DNA from: a virus
Virus record (IMG/VR): IMGVR_UViG_3300010883_025067
Span: 11,870 to 75,869 of that record
DNA: 64,000 nt
Direction: 5' to 3' (one strand)
Shown: piece by piece, positions 22,717-58,669 of the stretch
Numbering within the stretch: the first letter of the stretch is position 1
How the letters are laid out: every line of letters starts with the position of its first letter
The notes under the pieces: model-generated
Seen by the model: the letters and a program-made list of their open reading frames with translations, nothing else
Told to the model about the DNA's origin: nothing
The model's database searches: none
Program-made: the position numbers and the translations under genes

Positions 22717-24327
22717 ATGATGCAAAATAGCTTTAAGATTGTTAGGTTTGATATTGATGCCAGAGAGGATCTGCTACGAGGAGTTAATATTTTAGCAGAT
22801 GCTGTAAGAATAACAATGGGACCTCGTGGTCGAAATGTTGTGATTGAGCAGCCGGGACAACATCCAATTCTAACCAAGGATGGTGTTACAGTTGCAAGGG
22901 CAGTTAATCTTAGAGATTCTTTTTCAAATCTAGGCGTTCAAATGATTAAGGAGGCTGCATCACGTACTGCTGATGTTGCCGGAGATGGCACAACAACAGC
23001 AACTGTGCTATCACAGGCAATTTATGCTGAAGGTTTAAAGATGCTTGCCGCTGGCTACTCTGCATCAATTATAAAAAAAGGAATAGACTTTGCAGTTCAC
23101 CAGGTCATTGAAAACTTAAAGAATATCTCTATTCCCGCTGCGGGTGATAATGAGATCAGGCAGATTGCAACAATTTCTGCAAACGGAGAAAAAGAGATAG
23201 GTGATCTAATATGCAAGGCAATTGAGTCAGTTGGAAAAGATGGTGTTGTGACAGTTGAGGAGGCCAAGGGATTCAATAGTAGCCTAACAATCGTTGAGGG
23301 AATGCAAGTTGAAAGAGGATACCTTTCTCCTTATTTTGTAACCAACCAGGACAAGATGACAGTAGAGCTTAACGATCCGTATATTCTTCTTTGCAACAAA
23401 AAGATAGACAGCATGAAGGAGATAACATTGTTACTAGAAAAGGTTCTGAATGAACAGCGTAGCTTACTTATTGTTGCAGATGACGTCGATGGAGATGCAC
23501 TTCAAGGTCTTGTAGTTAATAAAATGAAAGGGTCACTTAGGATTTGTGCTATCCGTGCTCCAGGGTTTGGTGAATCTCGCGTAAGCATGTTGCAGGACTT
23601 AGCTGTAACATTGAATGGAAGGGTATTTACTGCAGTGTCTGGAGAATCGCTAGAAGGAGTAGAGCTTAAAGATCTTGGTGCATGTAAGAAGGTGATAATA
23701 GGAAGAGGTACTTCCGTTTTCATAGGTGGGTTAGGATCACAAGAAGCAATCAGCGCAAGAGTTCTTGAATTGCAAAGTCAGATGGAGTCTGACAATGCTG
23801 ATGATGCTGAGGTTGATGCATTGCGACTTAGAATCTCAAAGCTAAGTGGTGGTGTTGCAATTTTACGCGTGGGCGGTGCAACAGAGTCTGAGTTGCGAGA
23901 AAGAAAGGATAGAGTGGATGATGCTCTTAGTGCAACTCGAGCAGCGATGCAGGAAGGAATTGTACCTGGAGGCGGCGTTGCCCTAGTCAGAGCGTCTGAA
24001 TTCAAGCTAGACAGATCAGAGAAGCTTGATTATGAGGTTGGAACTAATGTGGTTAAAAATGCGTGTCAAGCACCGTTACGACAGATAGTGGAAAATTCAG
24101 GTGGCACACCTGATCTCGTGCTGGCAAAGATCAAAAGAATGAAGACAAATCACGGATATAACGCACTGACTGATGAATACGGTGATATGCTTGTCATGGG
24201 AATCATCGATCCTCTTAAGGTTGTTAGAGCAGCACTTGAAAATGCAGCATCTGCTGCAGGCATGATGCTAACTGTTGGATGTGCAATGATTGATGACATA
24301 AGTGAAGAACAGGGTAACGATTTCTAG
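22717..24327 (+). CDS. groEL: Chaperonin GroEL (Cpn60)
   Basis: [48 protein letters not shown]. Confidence 0.97.
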
Positions 24328-31302: not shown

Positions 31303-32247
31303 ATGGCAGATATGAATCTGAGCATCGTAGAAAGATTTAAACGATTAGAGATATATGCTGTTAGTGCAATCAAGCTCTTGATTGCTTTTGTGATTGTGTC
31401 AATTTTTACAGGTTGTACACAAGACTTTGCCATCACAGATCAGTCAGAAACAAGAGTTGTCATTGATTCGTTTATGCAGGCGAATCAAGTTGAGAAGATC
31501 GATGTCTTAGTTGCTCTTGATACATCGTGCTCTATGATCGATAATTTTGCAAATGTTTCAAGCGGAATGGAGTTACTAAGAGCTGATATTGAAAGCTTGA
31601 CTATAGATTATAAATTCGGATACATCACAGCCGATTCAACTCGGCTGGGGTTTGTTGGACCGTATGACTATAGTTCAAGTTCGATAGATATGATGCTAGC
31701 ACCGGGATTGTTGCCACAGACAATGAATGAGGAAGGGTTTGCAGCGACATATACATTTTTATCCACAGAATCTGGTGACGAGTTTTCAAGATCTGATGCT
31801 GATTTTTTACTGTTCTTAGTCTCCGATGAGGATGAGCAGAGTAGCATAACTGCACAGATGTTTCATGATTGGTTGCAAGCACTATTTGTTGATGTGAAGC
31901 ATGATATTATATCGATCACTACGTTGCATGAGAGCGAAAGTGTGTGTAGTCTCACATGGGATTATGGCTGGAAATATGAGGAGCTTGCAGGTCTGTATAA
32001 CAAGAGTGCATTGGATATCTGTGATGAGGACTGGTCACTGTGGTTGTCTGAGTCATCCTTTATCACAAGTCGAGAGAATAGCATAGAGCTAACTGAGAGT
32101 GATCCAATTGTTCAGTCAATTGTTGTTTATATTGAAAGAGTTCCGACATGGGATTGGGAGTATATTAAAGAGACCAACACAGTTCAGCTAGGTTTTACAC
32201 CTGACTATGGAGAGCTTGTTGAGGTCGGATATAAGGTTGAGATCTAA
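31303..32247 (+). CDS. Lipoprotein with vWA-like domain (myxobacterial type)
   Basis: FTGC lipobox; DVLVALDTSCSM MIDAS; VSDEDEQS; paralogous to C-half of 41963-43555. Confidence 0.7.
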   Translation: MADMNLSIVERFKRLEIYAVSAIKLLIAFVIVSIFTGCTQDFAITDQSETRVVIDSFMQANQVEKIDVLVALDTSCSMIDNFANVSSGMELLRADIESLTIDYKFGYITADSTRLGFVGPYDYSSSSIDMMLAPGLLPQTMNEEGFAATYTFLSTESGDEFSRSDADFLLFLVSDEDEQSSITAQMFHDWLQALFVDVKHDIISITTLHESESVCSLTWDYGWKYEELAGLYNKSALDICDEDWSLWLSESSFITSRENSIELTESDPIVQSIVVYIERVPTWDWEYIKETNTVQLGFTPDYGELVEVGYKVEI

Positions 32248-39725: not shown

Positions 39726-40358
39726 ATGGCAAGAAACATGTTTTTATTTTGTGCTTTATTTTTTATCGGTTGCTCTAGTCAGGAAAGCGTCGATGTAGAC
39801 GTCAGAGAGAGTGATTTTATTCTTTTGCTTAAAAGTACACCGAAAAAATTTGGTGATTGGAGATTGCTGCCTGAGGTCGTGATCTGCCAAAATGCACCAA
39901 TCTCAGAAAAGCAAATTATGAATGCTGTTGATTTTTGGAGATCTCTTGGGTATAGATTTGGAGTTATTAGTTCAAAATATTCTGAATCATGCTTCACACA
40001 TGGTAGACCATACTATCATATAACCATTGAGATGAATAATCGGGCTGTTGATGAGATGCATTGTGGTGAGACTGCTTTATATCTACAGGGTGAATCACAT
40101 GAAATACTTGGTGCAAGAATTTATTTAAGAAGCGGTGATGGCAACAGCCCCGGTGTGATAGAGCACGAATTCGGGCACGCGCTCGGCTGGAAGCATTTTA
40201 GAAAAAATGGTCACTTGATGCATCCAGCTTTGCGGAACGGTGGGTTCGACACACAGGGATTAAAAAATAATATTGTCCCAGTTGTGGGATATGGGATCGC
40301 AAGTGATGTAAATGAATCTGATATGATTCAGGTGTGTAGCGATCGTCGAGAAAAGTGA
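39726..40358 (+). CDS. Lipoprotein, matrixin-like (metzincin) metalloprotease
   Basis: FIGC lipobox; HEFGHALGWKH and Met-turn LMHP. Confidence 0.85.
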   Translation: MARNMFLFCALFFIGCSSQESVDVDVRESDFILLLKSTPKKFGDWRLLPEVVICQNAPISEKQIMNAVDFWRSLGYRFGVISSKYSESCFTHGRPYYHITIEMNNRAVDEMHCGETALYLQGESHEILGARIYLRSGDGNSPGVIEHEFGHALGWKHFRKNGHLMHPALRNGGFDTQGLKNNIVPVVGYGIASDVNESDMIQVCSDRREK

Positions 40359-40641: not shown

Positions 40642-41394
40642 ATGAGACTCTTATTAATTCTTCTTCTGTCCGCAACAACAGTTGCTGATGCAACAGCAAA
40701 AAAACATATTGATATTGTTACTGACGACATTACGTCATCTGTATTTATTTCTCGTGTATCAAATGAGCCTCTAACAGAATTTGAAAAGAAAGTTCGTGAG
40801 GCTGCTGTTAAGGTTATTGCAAAACGAGGTCATGGTTCTGGAACCTATGTGAAGCTAAAGGGCTTTCATCTTGTCTTCACAGCAGCCCATGTTGTGACTG
40901 ACGGAAGCAGACAATTTCTAGTGATGGGTGATGGTGAGAAGGTAATCGGACATCTCGTATACTCAGATAAAAAACTTGATGTGGGAGTTTTGCTTATTCC
41001 AGAAATGAAGACTCGTAGTCCAATGAAATACAAGCCACTGAAGGATCTCGCTGAAGTAGGTACACAGATCATGTATGCAGGGTTTCCAGCATCTCACAAC
41101 CTTTTATCAATAAGAGGCATGATAGCTGGTCACGAACTTGATAGATACGGAAACAAGGTTTTGCTGTTACATTCATATGCGTGGTTTGGATGTTCCGGAT
41201 CAGGTGTGTATGACCAGCATGGAAATTTTGTAGGTGTGCTTTGGGGAATTGATTCACCACAAGGAAGATTGATTCCACAGATAGTCGAGGATATTGTCTG
41301 GGTGACACCGTCAAGTAACATTAATGAAGACAAGATCATTGCTGGGATTTGTAAAAGCCTACTAACAGAATCTCGTGTTTGTTCTCTTTACTAG
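40642..41394 (+). CDS. Secreted trypsin-like serine protease
   Basis: Signal peptide; GSG, TAAHVV (His), LDVGVL (Asp), GCSGSG (Ser). Confidence 0.88.
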   Translation: MRLLLILLLSATTVADATAKKHIDIVTDDITSSVFISRVSNEPLTEFEKKVREAAVKVIAKRGHGSGTYVKLKGFHLVFTAAHVVTDGSRQFLVMGDGEKVIGHLVYSDKKLDVGVLLIPEMKTRSPMKYKPLKDLAEVGTQIMYAGFPASHNLLSIRGMIAGHELDRYGNKVLLLHSYAWFGCSGSGVYDQHGNFVGVLWGIDSPQGRLIPQIVEDIVWVTPSSNINEDKIIAGICKSLLTESRVCSLY

Positions 41395-41963
41395 GGCGTG
41401 ATTATTTGAGCAATGCCCGCTTCAAGAGCTGATTGACTATAGCCTCGTAGTATCTGCTTTATAACCATGTCCTCTGTTATAAAGAAGAATGTGGGCCATC
41501 CTGTTATGTTCCATCCAGTTGTAGAGGAGTAGTCTATCATATTTCTGCTTCCTGCTAGAACATGTGAATCTTCGATAACAAACAAATCTGCCCAATATGC
41601 ACAATCATCAGATGTCGCAGGCTCACCTTCTGCTGTTTCAATGAGCACAGTTAGATATTCAAGATTCTCTGACGCATACTTTGCCTTCACCTGATCTACC
41701 TTAGATGCAGCATCCATACATGGGCCACACCACATCACGCTGAAGTCTAGAACAATTGGCTGTTTGTAGAAGTCGTAAAGAGAGACGTCATTTCCATGCT
41801 GATCAACAAGTGTAAAATTGCAAGGATGATCTTCGATGTTTTGTGAGCATTCTTCCCACGGATATGGATTTTCTTGAACCTGACTGTCATCGCTTTTATC
41901 GAGACGAGGTGTGCATGCATTACATGCAGATGTGAGAAAGAGAAAAAATAGAGACTTATACAT
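41391..41963 (-). CDS. Redoxin/TlpA-like thioredoxin-fold protein, probable lipoprotein
   Basis: NFTLVDQHG...VLDFSVMWCGPC...GWPTF; N-terminal signal with Cys. Confidence 0.85.
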   Translation of the reverse strand: MYKSLFFLFLTSACNACTPRLDKSDDSQVQENPYPWEECSQNIEDHPCNFTLVDQHGNDVSLYDFYKQPIVLDFSVMWCGPCMDAASKVDQVKAKYASENLEYLTVLIETAEGEPATSDDCAYWADLFVIEDSHVLAGSRNMIDYSSTTGWNITGWPTFFFITEDMVIKQILRGYSQSALEAGIAQIITP

Positions 41964-43555
41964 TATTCACAGTTTCCTAATATTGCGTATTCAACTTCTA
42001 TTGTGCTATTCATTGCTGGAGGAGAGCTAAAGATAATTGAATTAGAGGTGATGCTGTAACTCCAGCTAGCTGATGAATATCCATTTACAGTTACAATAAT
42101 TGTCTCTTCAATGGGAAAGTCTGTGAGCTGGAACGAACTCTTTGCCATTGATTCTCTGGCAAGTGTGTCCATTTGTGCACCCCAGTCAACTGCACAAATG
42201 GACATGAAGGTTCCACTTAAAGCTTGTACGACTTCGTAATACCCACCACCAAACTGAGCATACATACCATTTGAATTGCATCCTGATGGAAAATCACCTG
42301 CTACAGCATGTGCAACAATTTGTTCAGTTGAAGTTTTTAGGCTTTGGAGGTGATTAGCATAATCTTGAGGAAGCATTGTCGAATATCTGCTAGAGGCATC
42401 AGTTTCATCTGAGACATAGATAATTACGAGTTTTGCATCCGATCGCAGAAAAGAGCTGCCAGGTCCAGCATCTGCCCCTGACTGTGTTGACTCATAAGAC
42501 TCCCACAAGCCTCTCTCTAAACCACTTCCAGAGACACCAATGCTGTTGATGATATTTGTAACGGTTCCGATAGGGTCAGCATGATTGCTATCAATAATCC
42601 CTCCGACAAAATTTTCATTATCAGTTGTAATAAATGCGAGTTGATAGTCCACACCTGATGTAGCAAAGACATTAATGAAAGAGCTAAAGTTGTTTGCCAG
42701 ATTTGTCTGGTGTCTGTACATCGAGCATGAATTATCAATGACAAATAGAATATCAGACTTTGATTCACCTGTTTGTTCGAATGATTCACTTACGATTGCT
42801 GCATACTTTCCTAGTGCGACTTGATCAGCACTTGCAGTAGGTGAAACAGGATCACTCGATGAAACTTCAACATATGAAGAGTCATCCACTAGATCAGTTG
42901 GTATGTATTCAATAATCACGTCTATGCTGCTGCTTGGAGGAATGATCCAGGGAAGGCTTCCGTGTATGCTCTGGTTATCATTGAAATTAAAGTCAACTGG
43001 CAGTGTTGTGAAAAATTCTACGTCGTCGACATGTAGATCAGCATCACCAACATTTGCAATGTTGACATTGATTTTTTCATCACAACCGACATCCACTTCA
43101 CCAAAGTCATAATACTCAGGAGTTATTTCTATGATGGGTGCATTTCCTGCACCATTTAGTGTCACCACTACTAGAGGACTATCTGGATCATTTGATTCAA
43201 TAAAGATCCTATCTGTGTCTGTTGAGTATGTTATGGGTGTGTAAGCTATCTCAATGCTTGTGGCCTCACCTGCCTCTAGGGAGGATTCATCGGGTGGGAT
43301 AAGTGTAAAAACAGATCTGCCTGATCTTAGGTAGATATCGTTAAGATCTAACGTATCAGTTCCTACATTGGAAACAATGATTTCACTAATATTTGTTTCA
43401 AATCCAGAGTGTAGTGACCCAAAATCAATTGATCCAGGAGAGACGTGAATGTCTGGGATCATATCAATCTTCGGATTTAGTTCATAATCTGAGCAGCCGG
43501 TCAACGCTACTAACATTGTAAAAATTACGCAAGATCGTGAAGTATATGACATCAA
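41963..43555 (-). CDS. Lipoprotein with two Ig-like (choice-of-anchor D/ASH-type) domains and a vWA-like domain
   Basis: LTGC lipobox; IHVSPGSIDFG...NVG...L; IESNDPD; DILFVIDNSCSM; VSDE. Confidence 0.8.
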   Translation of the reverse strand: MMSYTSRSCVIFTMLVALTGCSDYELNPKIDMIPDIHVSPGSIDFGSLHSGFETNISEIIVSNVGTDTLDLNDIYLRSGRSVFTLIPPDESSLEAGEATSIEIAYTPITYSTDTDRIFIESNDPDSPLVVVTLNGAGNAPIIEITPEYYDFGEVDVGCDEKINVNIANVGDADLHVDDVEFFTTLPVDFNFNDNQSIHGSLPWIIPPSSSIDVIIEYIPTDLVDDSSYVEVSSSDPVSPTASADQVALGKYAAIVSESFEQTGESKSDILFVIDNSCSMYRHQTNLANNFSSFINVFATSGVDYQLAFITTDNENFVGGIIDSNHADPIGTVTNIINSIGVSGSGLERGLWESYESTQSGADAGPGSSFLRSDAKLVIIYVSDETDASSRYSTMLPQDYANHLQSLKTSTEQIVAHAVAGDFPSGCNSNGMYAQFGGGYYEVVQALSGTFMSICAVDWGAQMDTLARESMAKSSFQLTDFPIEETIIVTVNGYSSASWSYSITSNSIIFSSPPAMNSTIEVEYAILGNCE

Positions 43556-52921: not shown

Positions 52922-53605
52922 ATGTTAGGCAGATTATTTTTTACAGCAATTTTCGCATGCAGCAGCGGTTCAGACATCAACACTAAAACGGAAGATGAAG
53001 TTGAGTCACCTGAGCAATCGTATGATGAATTTATATCACCAGAAATAAATGTATCACCAGAACTGTTAGGCACAGATACATCGACTTCTTCTAGCACTGA
53101 TAGCGATGAAGAAGATGTATCACCCATCACGTGGACTGAATGTGATCAGTGGCCCAATAGTCATCCATGTGATTTCAAATTGTTTGACCCAAATGGTGAT
53201 GTCTGGACTCTATACGACAACTATGGCACAGTGATGGTAATCGAATTTGTGACAATGTGGTGTGCTGTCTGCAACAGCATTGCACCACATGTTCAGACAA
53301 TGCAGGATACCTATACTTCTCGTGGGTATGACTTCTTATGGGTAACTGTCATCATCGAGGATTACAATCGTGAGAGTGTAGAGTTTTCAGAAGCTCAGGC
53401 ATGGATTGATAGAAACGGAATGACAACATCACCTGTTCTGGTAGGCTCACGTGACATGATAGACATGAGTGGCCAACTAGGCTATCCTATCAGCTCCTGG
53501 CCTACACTTGTTGTGATAGATGATGAGATGGTCCTGACACATGGAATTAACGGCTGGAATGAAAGTATCATTCTAGAATGGGTTGAAGACGCGCTAGGTC
53601 TGTGA
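52922..53605 (+). CDS. Redoxin-family lipoprotein, paralog of 41391-41963
   Basis: IFAC lipobox; HPCDFKLFD; MWCAVC; SWPTLVVID. Confidence 0.85.
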   Translation: MLGRLFFTAIFACSSGSDINTKTEDEVESPEQSYDEFISPEINVSPELLGTDTSTSSSTDSDEEDVSPITWTECDQWPNSHPCDFKLFDPNGDVWTLYDNYGTVMVIEFVTMWCAVCNSIAPHVQTMQDTYTSRGYDFLWVTVIIEDYNRESVEFSEAQAWIDRNGMTTSPVLVGSRDMIDMSGQLGYPISSWPTLVVIDDEMVLTHGINGWNESIILEWVEDALGL

Positions 53606-54646: not shown

Positions 54647-54904
54647 ATGCAAAAATGGAATGCCTGGGACAAAAGATGCATGTGTATCGCACTTTTAAAC
54701 CGCGAGCTTTTGAGCCAGGGCAGGACACTCACCGAGATAGAAGTTGAATACAACAAGGGGTGGTTTTGTCATGATAAAGCCATCGTGTATAGACGACCTG
54801 ATCTCACGAAACAAGCAGAGAAAATGCTTAGAAAGGGACACCGAGCAGTGTTTGATTTGACGCTTAAAAGCTATGCAATACATGCAAAAAACAAACGTTT
54901 GTAG
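54647..54904 (+). CDS. Hypothetical protein
   Basis: Directly after a class-1 promoter (possibly leaderless). Confidence 0.55.
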   Translation: MQKWNAWDKRCMCIALLNRELLSQGRTLTEIEVEYNKGWFCHDKAIVYRRPDLTKQAEKMLRKGHRAVFDLTLKSYAIHAKNKRL

Positions 54905-54910
54905 TACAAT
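54882..54910 (+). promoter_or_regulatory. Class-1 promoter upstream of RadA-like gene and ligase
   Basis: atgcaa-N17-tacaat. Confidence 0.72.
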
Positions 54911-56959: not shown

Positions 56960-57163
56960 AGTTAAGCAGTGATGCTATCAATCAGTTGCTTCGTATCATT
57001 AGTGAAGTTGATGAACCATGGTGGCCACAAGGACCGAGTGAGATGCTAAAGGAAAGACTTGAAAGTCAGAGTTTTGTGAAGAGAGATGGAAAACTCTACA
57101 TCAAGGTTAAGAAAGAAAAGTAAACGTTCGTTCCTCTCGCATTATAATTTTTTTGAGGTATGT

Positions 57164-57445
57164 ATGCGTTTAGCTATTGAGATCTTTGCAATGCTTTTCA
57201 TATTATCATTTTATGATGTAGCTGCTCAGGATTTACCTGAATCTGATGAATCGTCACAGGACAGGAAAATTGTGTATAAACAGAGAACAGAAATTGATTT
57301 TGAGGGAATTGAGATTGAAGGGCAGCTTGTAAAGCCACAGGGCTCGTTGATAATAGATCGCAGAGTCGGAACCTTTAATCCTCTTATTAGATTACGAACA
57401 GACTTTGACGAGGAAATAAAATCATCCGTAAATAGCGTAAAGTGA
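57164..57445 (+). CDS. CglF/GltF-like adventurous-gliding motility protein homolog
   Basis: Signal peptide (VAA/Q) then VYKQRTEIDFEGIEIEGQLVKPQG...FNPLIRLRTDF..EI..S, the pattern I recall for myxobacterial CglF. Confidence 0.72.
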   Translation: MRLAIEIFAMLFILSFYDVAAQDLPESDESSQDRKIVYKQRTEIDFEGIEIEGQLVKPQGSLIIDRRVGTFNPLIRLRTDFDEEIKSSVNSVK

Positions 57446-58408: not shown

Positions 58409-58658
58409 CCCATCGGAATTGAGTGGTTTCGAAATAGGACAGAATGTCTGGTGCATTCGTACTGACGGTGTGATTGCTTACGGAAAGATTATACAGTTTT
58501 ATCCAATTAATAATGAAGGGCCAGCTGTGAGTGTGGTTGATGAGATCACAGGAGCCTACCGTGTTGTACTACTAGATACTGTGACGCTAGAACCTCCCAA
58601 AGGAGGCAAGAGTCGCCTATCTCGCAGCAAGGTGCAACACGTGCAAAAAAAGAAATAG
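58377..58658 (+). CDS. Small SH3-like protein
   Basis: FEIGQNVW...YGKII; start uncertain. Confidence 0.5.
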   Translation: MRRLRSLAGTSPSELSGFEIGQNVWCIRTDGVIAYGKIIQFYPINNEGPAVSVVDEITGAYRVVLLDTVTLEPPKGGKSRLSRSKVQHVQKKK

Positions 58659-58669
58659 AGTGGTATGAT
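58641..58669 (+). promoter_or_regulatory. Class-1 promoter
   Basis: gtgcaa-N17-tatgat. Confidence 0.75.

Follow-up and report, generated by a model that had tools for sequence, protein, structure and literature searches.

Gliding of Myxococcus xanthus requires GltF (MXAN_4868), a protein of 89 aa that has a signal peptide, lacks any domain, and is recruited to focal adhesions (Luciano 2011, PMC3169522). Relatives of GltF in Bdellovibrionota are known from the same study, and GltF is identical to the CglF protein of M. xanthus (Jakobczak 2015, PMC4488436, in which the Nfs system of this species is also mentioned). M. xanthus GltF is disordered apart from a C-terminal helix, and in an AlphaFold model of the machine, this helix lies in a groove of GltC, a strand in the center of the protein is paired with GltG at its TonB-like C-terminal domain, and GltD is contacted as well (PMC11761067). 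In this model, GltF bridges the inner-membrane and outer-membrane modules; the contacts between GltF, GltG, and GltC are predictions (PMC11761067). GltF is essential to the myxobacterial gliding machine, and the mechanism is poorly understood. M. xanthus also contains a paralog, NfsF, which belongs to the Nfs spore-coat machine. NfsF belongs to the GltF family, and its machine, which spans the envelope, is of a similar kind.

A GltF homolog encoded on a marine viral contig

The stretch of DNA that was analyzed, called the window, is 64,000 nt long and comprises bases 11870-75869 of an IMG/VR record of 75,869 bases, which was rated about 24% complete by CheckV. It contains an open reading frame (ORF) at 57164-57445 on the plus strand, which starts with the ATG at 57164, ends with the TGA at 57443-57445, and encodes 93 aa plus stop. 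A Shine-Dalgarno-like GAGGT is present at 57155-57159 (+), 5 nt before the ATG, and AGGAG or GAGG precedes the start in four related phage copies, too. A mechanical ORF list gave 57086 as the start of the longest ORF. This start was rejected because the ortholog of a second viral contig, L002, which is 87% identical and has the same synteny, and all other relatives begin at the position of the sequence MRLAIE.

Three parts of the protein can be distinguished. Residues 1-21 (57164-57226, +) are predicted to form a Sec-type signal peptide, with putative cleavage between V-A-A and Q-D, based on hydropathy, a modelled helix (residues 2-14), and the architecture of the family. Residues 3-16 are strongly hydrophobic, the hydropathy exceeds 2 across residues 3-13, and a signal peptide with A-x-A followed by Q, D, or E is common to all 160 of 160 relatives, the junction of the cellular family being A-x-A followed by Q-D/E. 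Because phage GltF does not contain a single cysteine, it is not a lipoprotein, but a soluble protein that is secreted. Residues 22-33 (57227-57262, +) constitute an acidic, disordered spacer, which varies in length and sequence across the family and has pLDDT values below 50 at residues 21-28. The conserved GltF core encompasses the 60 residues 34-93 (57263-57442, +) and consists of a strand-forming block, Y-K-x-R/K-T-E-I-D-F-E ... G-x-L-V-K-P, and a C-terminal block, F-N-P-L-I-x-L-R, followed by the helix at 81-91.

The NCBIfam model NF033764 (adventurous gliding motility protein CglF) matched the phage ORF with an E value of 4.6e-13 over 82 of 88 model positions, and the score of 49 bits is below the curated equivalog cut-off of 90 bits. 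The GltF of a Myxococcota metagenome-assembled genome (MAG; L004), which is defined by synteny, reached 47.9 bits with the same model. Therefore, the cut-off reflects the distance from Myxococcus, and not a loss of the family. The gene order in L004 is GltC, a GltD-like TPR protein of 1104 aa, GltE, the GltF homolog, GltG, and CglE (= GltH), and each of these neighbors (gltC, gltD, gltE, gltG, and cglE) was found beside the GltF homolog in 54-74 of the 80 cellular loci that were fetched. In the nfs locus, the genes are contiguous, and the gltC-type gene directly precedes the gltD-type gene. The MAG clusters likewise place gltC directly before gltD. The phage GltF protein has 953 homologs at E<=1e-3, with 530 representatives in a profile-free scan, and the similarity clearly exceeds what chance would give. 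Pfam and PHROGs searches with the same protein yielded no match. On the level of sequence, the HMM match and the synteny-proven orthologs confirm that the phage ORF is a true homolog of CglF/GltF. The family assignment made by the sequence-only reading thus holds, and so does its description of a secreted protein of 93 aa, as the ORF, the signal peptide, and the quoted motifs are all present.

The phage protein and GltF/CglF of M. xanthus are similar in length (93 versus 89 aa), and they share a signal peptide, the lack of a Pfam domain, the conserved core, and disorder combined with a C-terminal helix. They differ in that the phage gene stands alone, whereas the M. xanthus gene is located between gltE and gltG, and in that the closest relatives of the phage protein are the GltF proteins of uncultured marine Myxococcota, with 50-66% identity. 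In some Myxococcota genomes (G002, C128:75074-75815; G060; and G015), a second, weaker GltF-like gene is located a few hundred bases from the first, which makes these genes tandem paralogs.

The phage lineage, its gltF genes, and the likely host

Nearly all genes of the record are on one strand, nine tRNAs are present, and the encoded proteins include GroEL, an ATP-dependent DNA ligase, an HNH enzyme, a helicase, DnaK, and a DnaE-type polymerase. The best cultured match of the helicase is from a jumbo phage of 309 kb. The chaperone set (L084:6153-9127 and window 22717-24327) comprises a DnaK of 625 aa that is 55-60% identical to bacterial DnaK, a neighbor of 344 aa, and GroEL; the neighbor is read as DnaJ-like, and its PHROG matches are only of unknown function. 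The DnaE-type (Pol III alpha-like) replicative polymerase is encoded at L084:9194-11899, continuing into positions 1-927 of the window, and the near-complete members of the lineage with this polymerase carry T4-type Gp23 capsids. Orthologs of the polymerase were found in four large gltF-bearing viral records (G006, G007, G009, and G010) with identities of 58, 47, 43, and 43%, and all four contain a T4-type Gp23 capsid gene with about 200 bits. A terminase match was obtained for G007, G009, and G010. At E<=0.001, none was found for G006, a record with terminal repeats and a completeness rating of 100%.

Within the 75.9-kb record itself, neither a capsid gene nor a terminase gene was found. Its phage status therefore rests on kinship with near-complete phages. 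The lack of these genes and the cell-like DnaK and GroEL could also be taken to mean that a cellular fragment was misfiled as viral, or that gltF is a decaying passenger gene. However, such an artefact is highly improbable, because the polymerase has its orthologs in phages with Gp23 capsids and terminal repeats, and because the genes on one strand, the nine tRNAs, and a phage-specific promoter motif are at odds with it, as are the intact and selected viral gltF copies described below. The window contains 15 copies of this promoter-like motif, CRTGYAA-N17-TANNAT, compared to an expectation of 0.21, and 14 of them are on the plus strand, ahead of genes. The copy at 54881-54910 (+), which is followed by the next copy at 58640-58669, probably starts a unit of four genes that would be co-transcribed, i.e., a RadA-like ATPase, the DNA ligase, an ORF of 55 aa, and gltF. 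The window stretch is present in marine and seawater metagenomes of 19 studies. The phage identity of the record is sound.

A profile scan of IMG/VR revealed that at least 101 contigs carry a gltF relative. Eighty of them were fetched for analysis of the genomic context, and these have mostly 34-47% GC. Homologs of GltC, GltD, GltE, GltG, or CglE were found neither in the window nor in the 80 viral loci, and the gltF gene is thus present alone, as is expected for a captured gene. In bulk metagenomes, lone gltF genes are likewise located on low-GC contigs, whereas the glt cluster is located on high-GC contigs. All of the 80 viral gltF copies are intact and encode proteins of 75-94 aa with signal peptides. 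In a tree of 156 GltF sequences, the label viral or cellular changes only 4 times, compared to 51.7 times after shuffling, and the GltF of the window groups with L002 and next with the clade of a complete phage of 203 kb. The dN/dS ratio of gltF is 0.09 versus L002, and the median of 139 viral pairs is 0.10, indicating that purifying selection on the phage gene is strong. The GC content of the gene (37%) is at or below that of the phage (41%), which argues against a recent capture. Judged from these comparisons of sequences, gltF has long been present in phages under selection and is no passenger that was picked up recently. As expected for a host-derived auxiliary gene, it is located on a phage genome, its cellular homologs belong to a cellular system, and its phage copies are kept by selection.

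A tblastn search against 50,697 GenBank phages gave no gltF match, and no paper on a phage-borne gltF was found in the literature. These results agree with the sequence-only reading, which had known of no described phage gene for gliding motility. Its view of the gene as phage-encoded is supported by the kinship of the polymerase to those of phages with Gp23 capsids and by the IMG/VR record. The novelty lies in a known family in a new context, a phage, as no virus has been reported to contain any part of the gliding machine. The lone, strongly conserved phage gltF gene, present in more than 100 viral contigs, could serve as a host marker for an abundant group of large marine phages that is currently hostless.

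The nearest cellular GltF proteins, with the above-mentioned 50-66% identity, are from uncultured Myxococcota MAGs of one subgroup, the label "Myxococcota" being based on record titles and on the fact that G003 and G005 fall in one phylum sample. A GltF match was found in 70 of 121 sampled Myxococcota genomes, but only about 20 of the matches were near or above 90 bits. A second line of evidence comes from tmRNA, which is encoded by all five large gltF-bearing relatives (L248-L252, records G006-G010). The tags of these phages, ANNNNNF.., ANNNLYF.., ANNNYFY.., ANNNNHF.., and ANNNAHF.., are of the ANNNxxF/Y type. ANNN-type tags, e.g., ANNNKHFALAA and ANNNNHFAATAVA, are present in 16 of the 19 Myxococcota genomes with the closest GltF, but in only 2 of 33 remaining genomes (Fisher p 1e-8), all genomes of this comparison being from the Myxococcota. 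No tmRNA was found on the window's own contig fragment, and the tags are thus those of its relatives. The tag match of the related phages independently supports the view that a single subgroup of marine Myxococcota is the host of the lineage. In summary, this subgroup is the most likely host of the phage lineage, and the nearest GltF proteins together with the tmRNA tags of related phages lend indirect backing to the earlier proposal that the gene identifies the host group.

The GC content of the phages (34-47%) is 10-30 points lower than that of the candidate hosts (52-72%). A similar GC gap exists between T4-like cyanophages and their hosts. No low-GC cellular lineage with a glt cluster was found, and every low-GC metagenome contig with gltF lacked glt neighbors. 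The nearest cultured relatives of the G006 capsid infect Flavobacterium, Microcystis, and Rhodothermus, which provides no clue to the host. A Shine-Dalgarno 4-mer precedes 38% of the first starts, compared to a background of 11-13%, which argues weakly against a Bacteroidota host. The large difference in GC content from every genome in which glt genes were found and the non-myxobacterial hosts of the capsid relatives would fit a host without any Glt or Nfs machine, in which GltF would act on another TonB/TolA-like domain or together with vWA lipoproteins, proteases, and redoxins of the phage. This is quite unlikely, however, as the tmRNA tags of the related phages match those of precisely that subgroup of Myxococcota whose GltF is closest.

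Some of the cellular loci have unexpected titles. L005, L052, and L058 as well as about 19 "Enterobacterales" loci are titled Klebsiella pneumoniae/Enterobacterales and have 60-68% GC. Most of the 80 cellular loci, including those with Klebsiella/Enterobacterales titles, carry glt-cluster neighbors, and the labels look wrong.

Predicted partners and possible roles of phage GltF

An AlphaFold2 model of the phage GltF monomer contains only two helices, i.e., residues 2-14 in the signal peptide and residues 81-91, while the rest is disordered (mean pLDDT of 58). For a complex of phage GltF (residues 22-93) with the C-terminal domain of GltG from L004, the prediction yielded a score of 0.34, compared to 0.00 for the best of three controls, and thus supports the pairing weakly. 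Of 80 solved complexes, 58 passed the mark for such predictions, as did 2 of 110 mismatched pairs. Only 7 of these 80 solved complexes passed it with a score of <=0.60, and both passing mismatches did so in this range as well. At least 53% of the contacts agree between the runs with GltF and the GltG domain, and the pLDDT of the partner is at least 48. TonB-box peptides are known to pair as a beta-strand with the C-terminal domain of TonB. A short extended segment of GltF is likewise predicted to join a TonB-like domain as an additional strand; in contrast to TonB-box proteins, however, GltF is a soluble linker and not the plug of an outer-membrane receptor, and in its case, the pairing is known by prediction only. 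Homologs of the GltG C-terminal domain and of GltC were found in none of five large related phages, four of which are rated at least 94% complete. Therefore, any partners of GltF must be host proteins, which also speaks against a role outside a host Glt- or Nfs-type machine.

We tentatively favor the possibility that phage GltF is a host-derived lone working linker that is supplied to a Glt/Nfs-type machine of the marine Myxococcota host. The host Sec system would export the phage protein to the periplasm of the infected cell, where it would take the place of host GltF in the envelope-spanning machine. Its strand would then pair with GltG at the TonB-like domain, and its C-terminal helix would lie in the groove of GltC, as in the published AlphaFold model, so that the two modules would be bridged. 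By analogy with other phage-encoded subunits, the linker supplied by the phage might keep the machine running, or re-tune it, rather than poison it, when the expression of host genes declines. The host machine may be Glt-like or Nfs-like, and thus, the term "gliding" is an assumption. Phage copies of a subunit of a host machine have a precedent in psbA, which encodes the D1 protein of photosystem II and is present in cyanophages. As in the case of psbA, gltF encodes a single host-derived subunit that has long been kept in T4-like marine phages under purifying selection, and the protein is presumably inserted into a host complex. The two cases differ in that the target of GltF would not be metabolic, but an envelope machine of the motility or transport type.

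The conservation of residues was counted over 61 distinct phage and 79 distinct cellular GltF sequences. Y38, T42, E43, I44, D45, F46, G53, L55, P58, R66, F71, N72, and R78 turned out to be invariant or nearly so (>=97%) in phage and cellular proteins alike. Identical invariant residues imply the same partners, which is a further argument against action in a host without the machine. Four residues that are fixed in the cellular proteins vary among the phage copies, i.e., E54, D65E, L74M, and M85I, and E54 is present in 100% of the cellular sequences versus 41% of the phage sequences. The changes at the relaxed positions are mostly conservative and fit the low-GC bias, but the loss of one contact could be another explanation.

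The variation of E54, D65, L74, and M85 is also a point for the main rival of the working linker, according to which phage GltF binds only one host partner, e.g., the TonB-like domain of GltG or the groove of GltC, and does not transmit force. As a result, the motor would be uncoupled from the surface and the infected cell would stop, or machine parts on the surface that the phage uses as receptors would be hidden, leading to superinfection exclusion. The fact that the phage carries only one part of the machine and has other exported envelope proteins would fit this as well, and phages often encode small periplasmic exclusion proteins. Nevertheless, we regard such jamming as somewhat unlikely. 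A one-sided blocker needs only one interface, whereas both blocks and all family invariants are kept in deeply diverged phage clades with a dN/dS of about 0.1, and most of the relaxed positions are conservative exchanges that an AT bias would produce anyway. Because both interface blocks have long been kept, we infer that a working linker is likelier than a one-sided blocker. The earlier proposal that the phage manipulates gliding, either to spread infected cells or to jam a receptor complex, gained no support from these analyses.

If the phage protein is indeed a working linker, the phage lineage might use its own tuned GltF to control the Glt/Nfs motor of the host. Infected predatory cells would then be kept moving or attached, or the motor would drive the surface handling of the vWA lipoprotein adhesins of the phage. 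This further step is unlikely. If it were true, phage GltF would represent the first functional component of a bacterial motor of the gliding type to be encoded by a virus, and the natural set of GltF variants could be used to dissect the role of the linker. The presence of gltF in these phages may indicate that a Glt/Nfs-type machine operates in uncultured marine Myxococcota and is important enough to be targeted by phages, and it makes available dozens of natural GltF variants for testing the predicted GltG-GltF-GltC bridge.

Other exported proteins encoded near gltF

The window encodes a further set of exported proteins, i.e., two paralogous vWA/MIDAS lipoproteins, a trypsin-like protease, two redoxin lipoproteins, and a metzincin. 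The genes are located at 31303-32247 (+), 41963-43555 (-), 40642-41394 (+), 41391-41963 (-), 52922-53605 (+), and 39726-40358 (+). One of the vWA/MIDAS lipoproteins contains Ig domains of the choice-of-anchor-D type, and the family of the vWA protein of 530 aa is widespread on large marine contigs. In 10-34 of 67 related phage loci, homologs of the exported set are located no more than about 10 kb from gltF, and for the genes of the vWA lipoprotein, the trypsin-like protease, and the redoxins, the values are 20-34 of 67. This neighborhood would suit a GltF that acts with the exported proteins in a host without a Glt machine. However, of 6 tested genes that separate gltF from the vWA gene in related phages, only 2 match Pfam (NUDIX and DUF6356), and with mostly Pfam-less genes, the region between the two does not form an obvious module, and in particular not a recognizable Glt module.

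A further idea, according to which the phage vWA lipoproteins correspond to CglB or CglD and belong with the glt genes, was not supported. Only weak partial matches were obtained (32 bits to CglD and 53 bits to a MIDAS adhesin of Bdellovibrio), and the vWA homologs of the MAGs are multi-copy and located far from the glt cluster. Lastly, several unrelated proteins of related phages (L097:10241-12070 and L129:10566-12255) begin with the leader M-K-L-L-x-E-N-W-R, which recalls a shared leader on the window.
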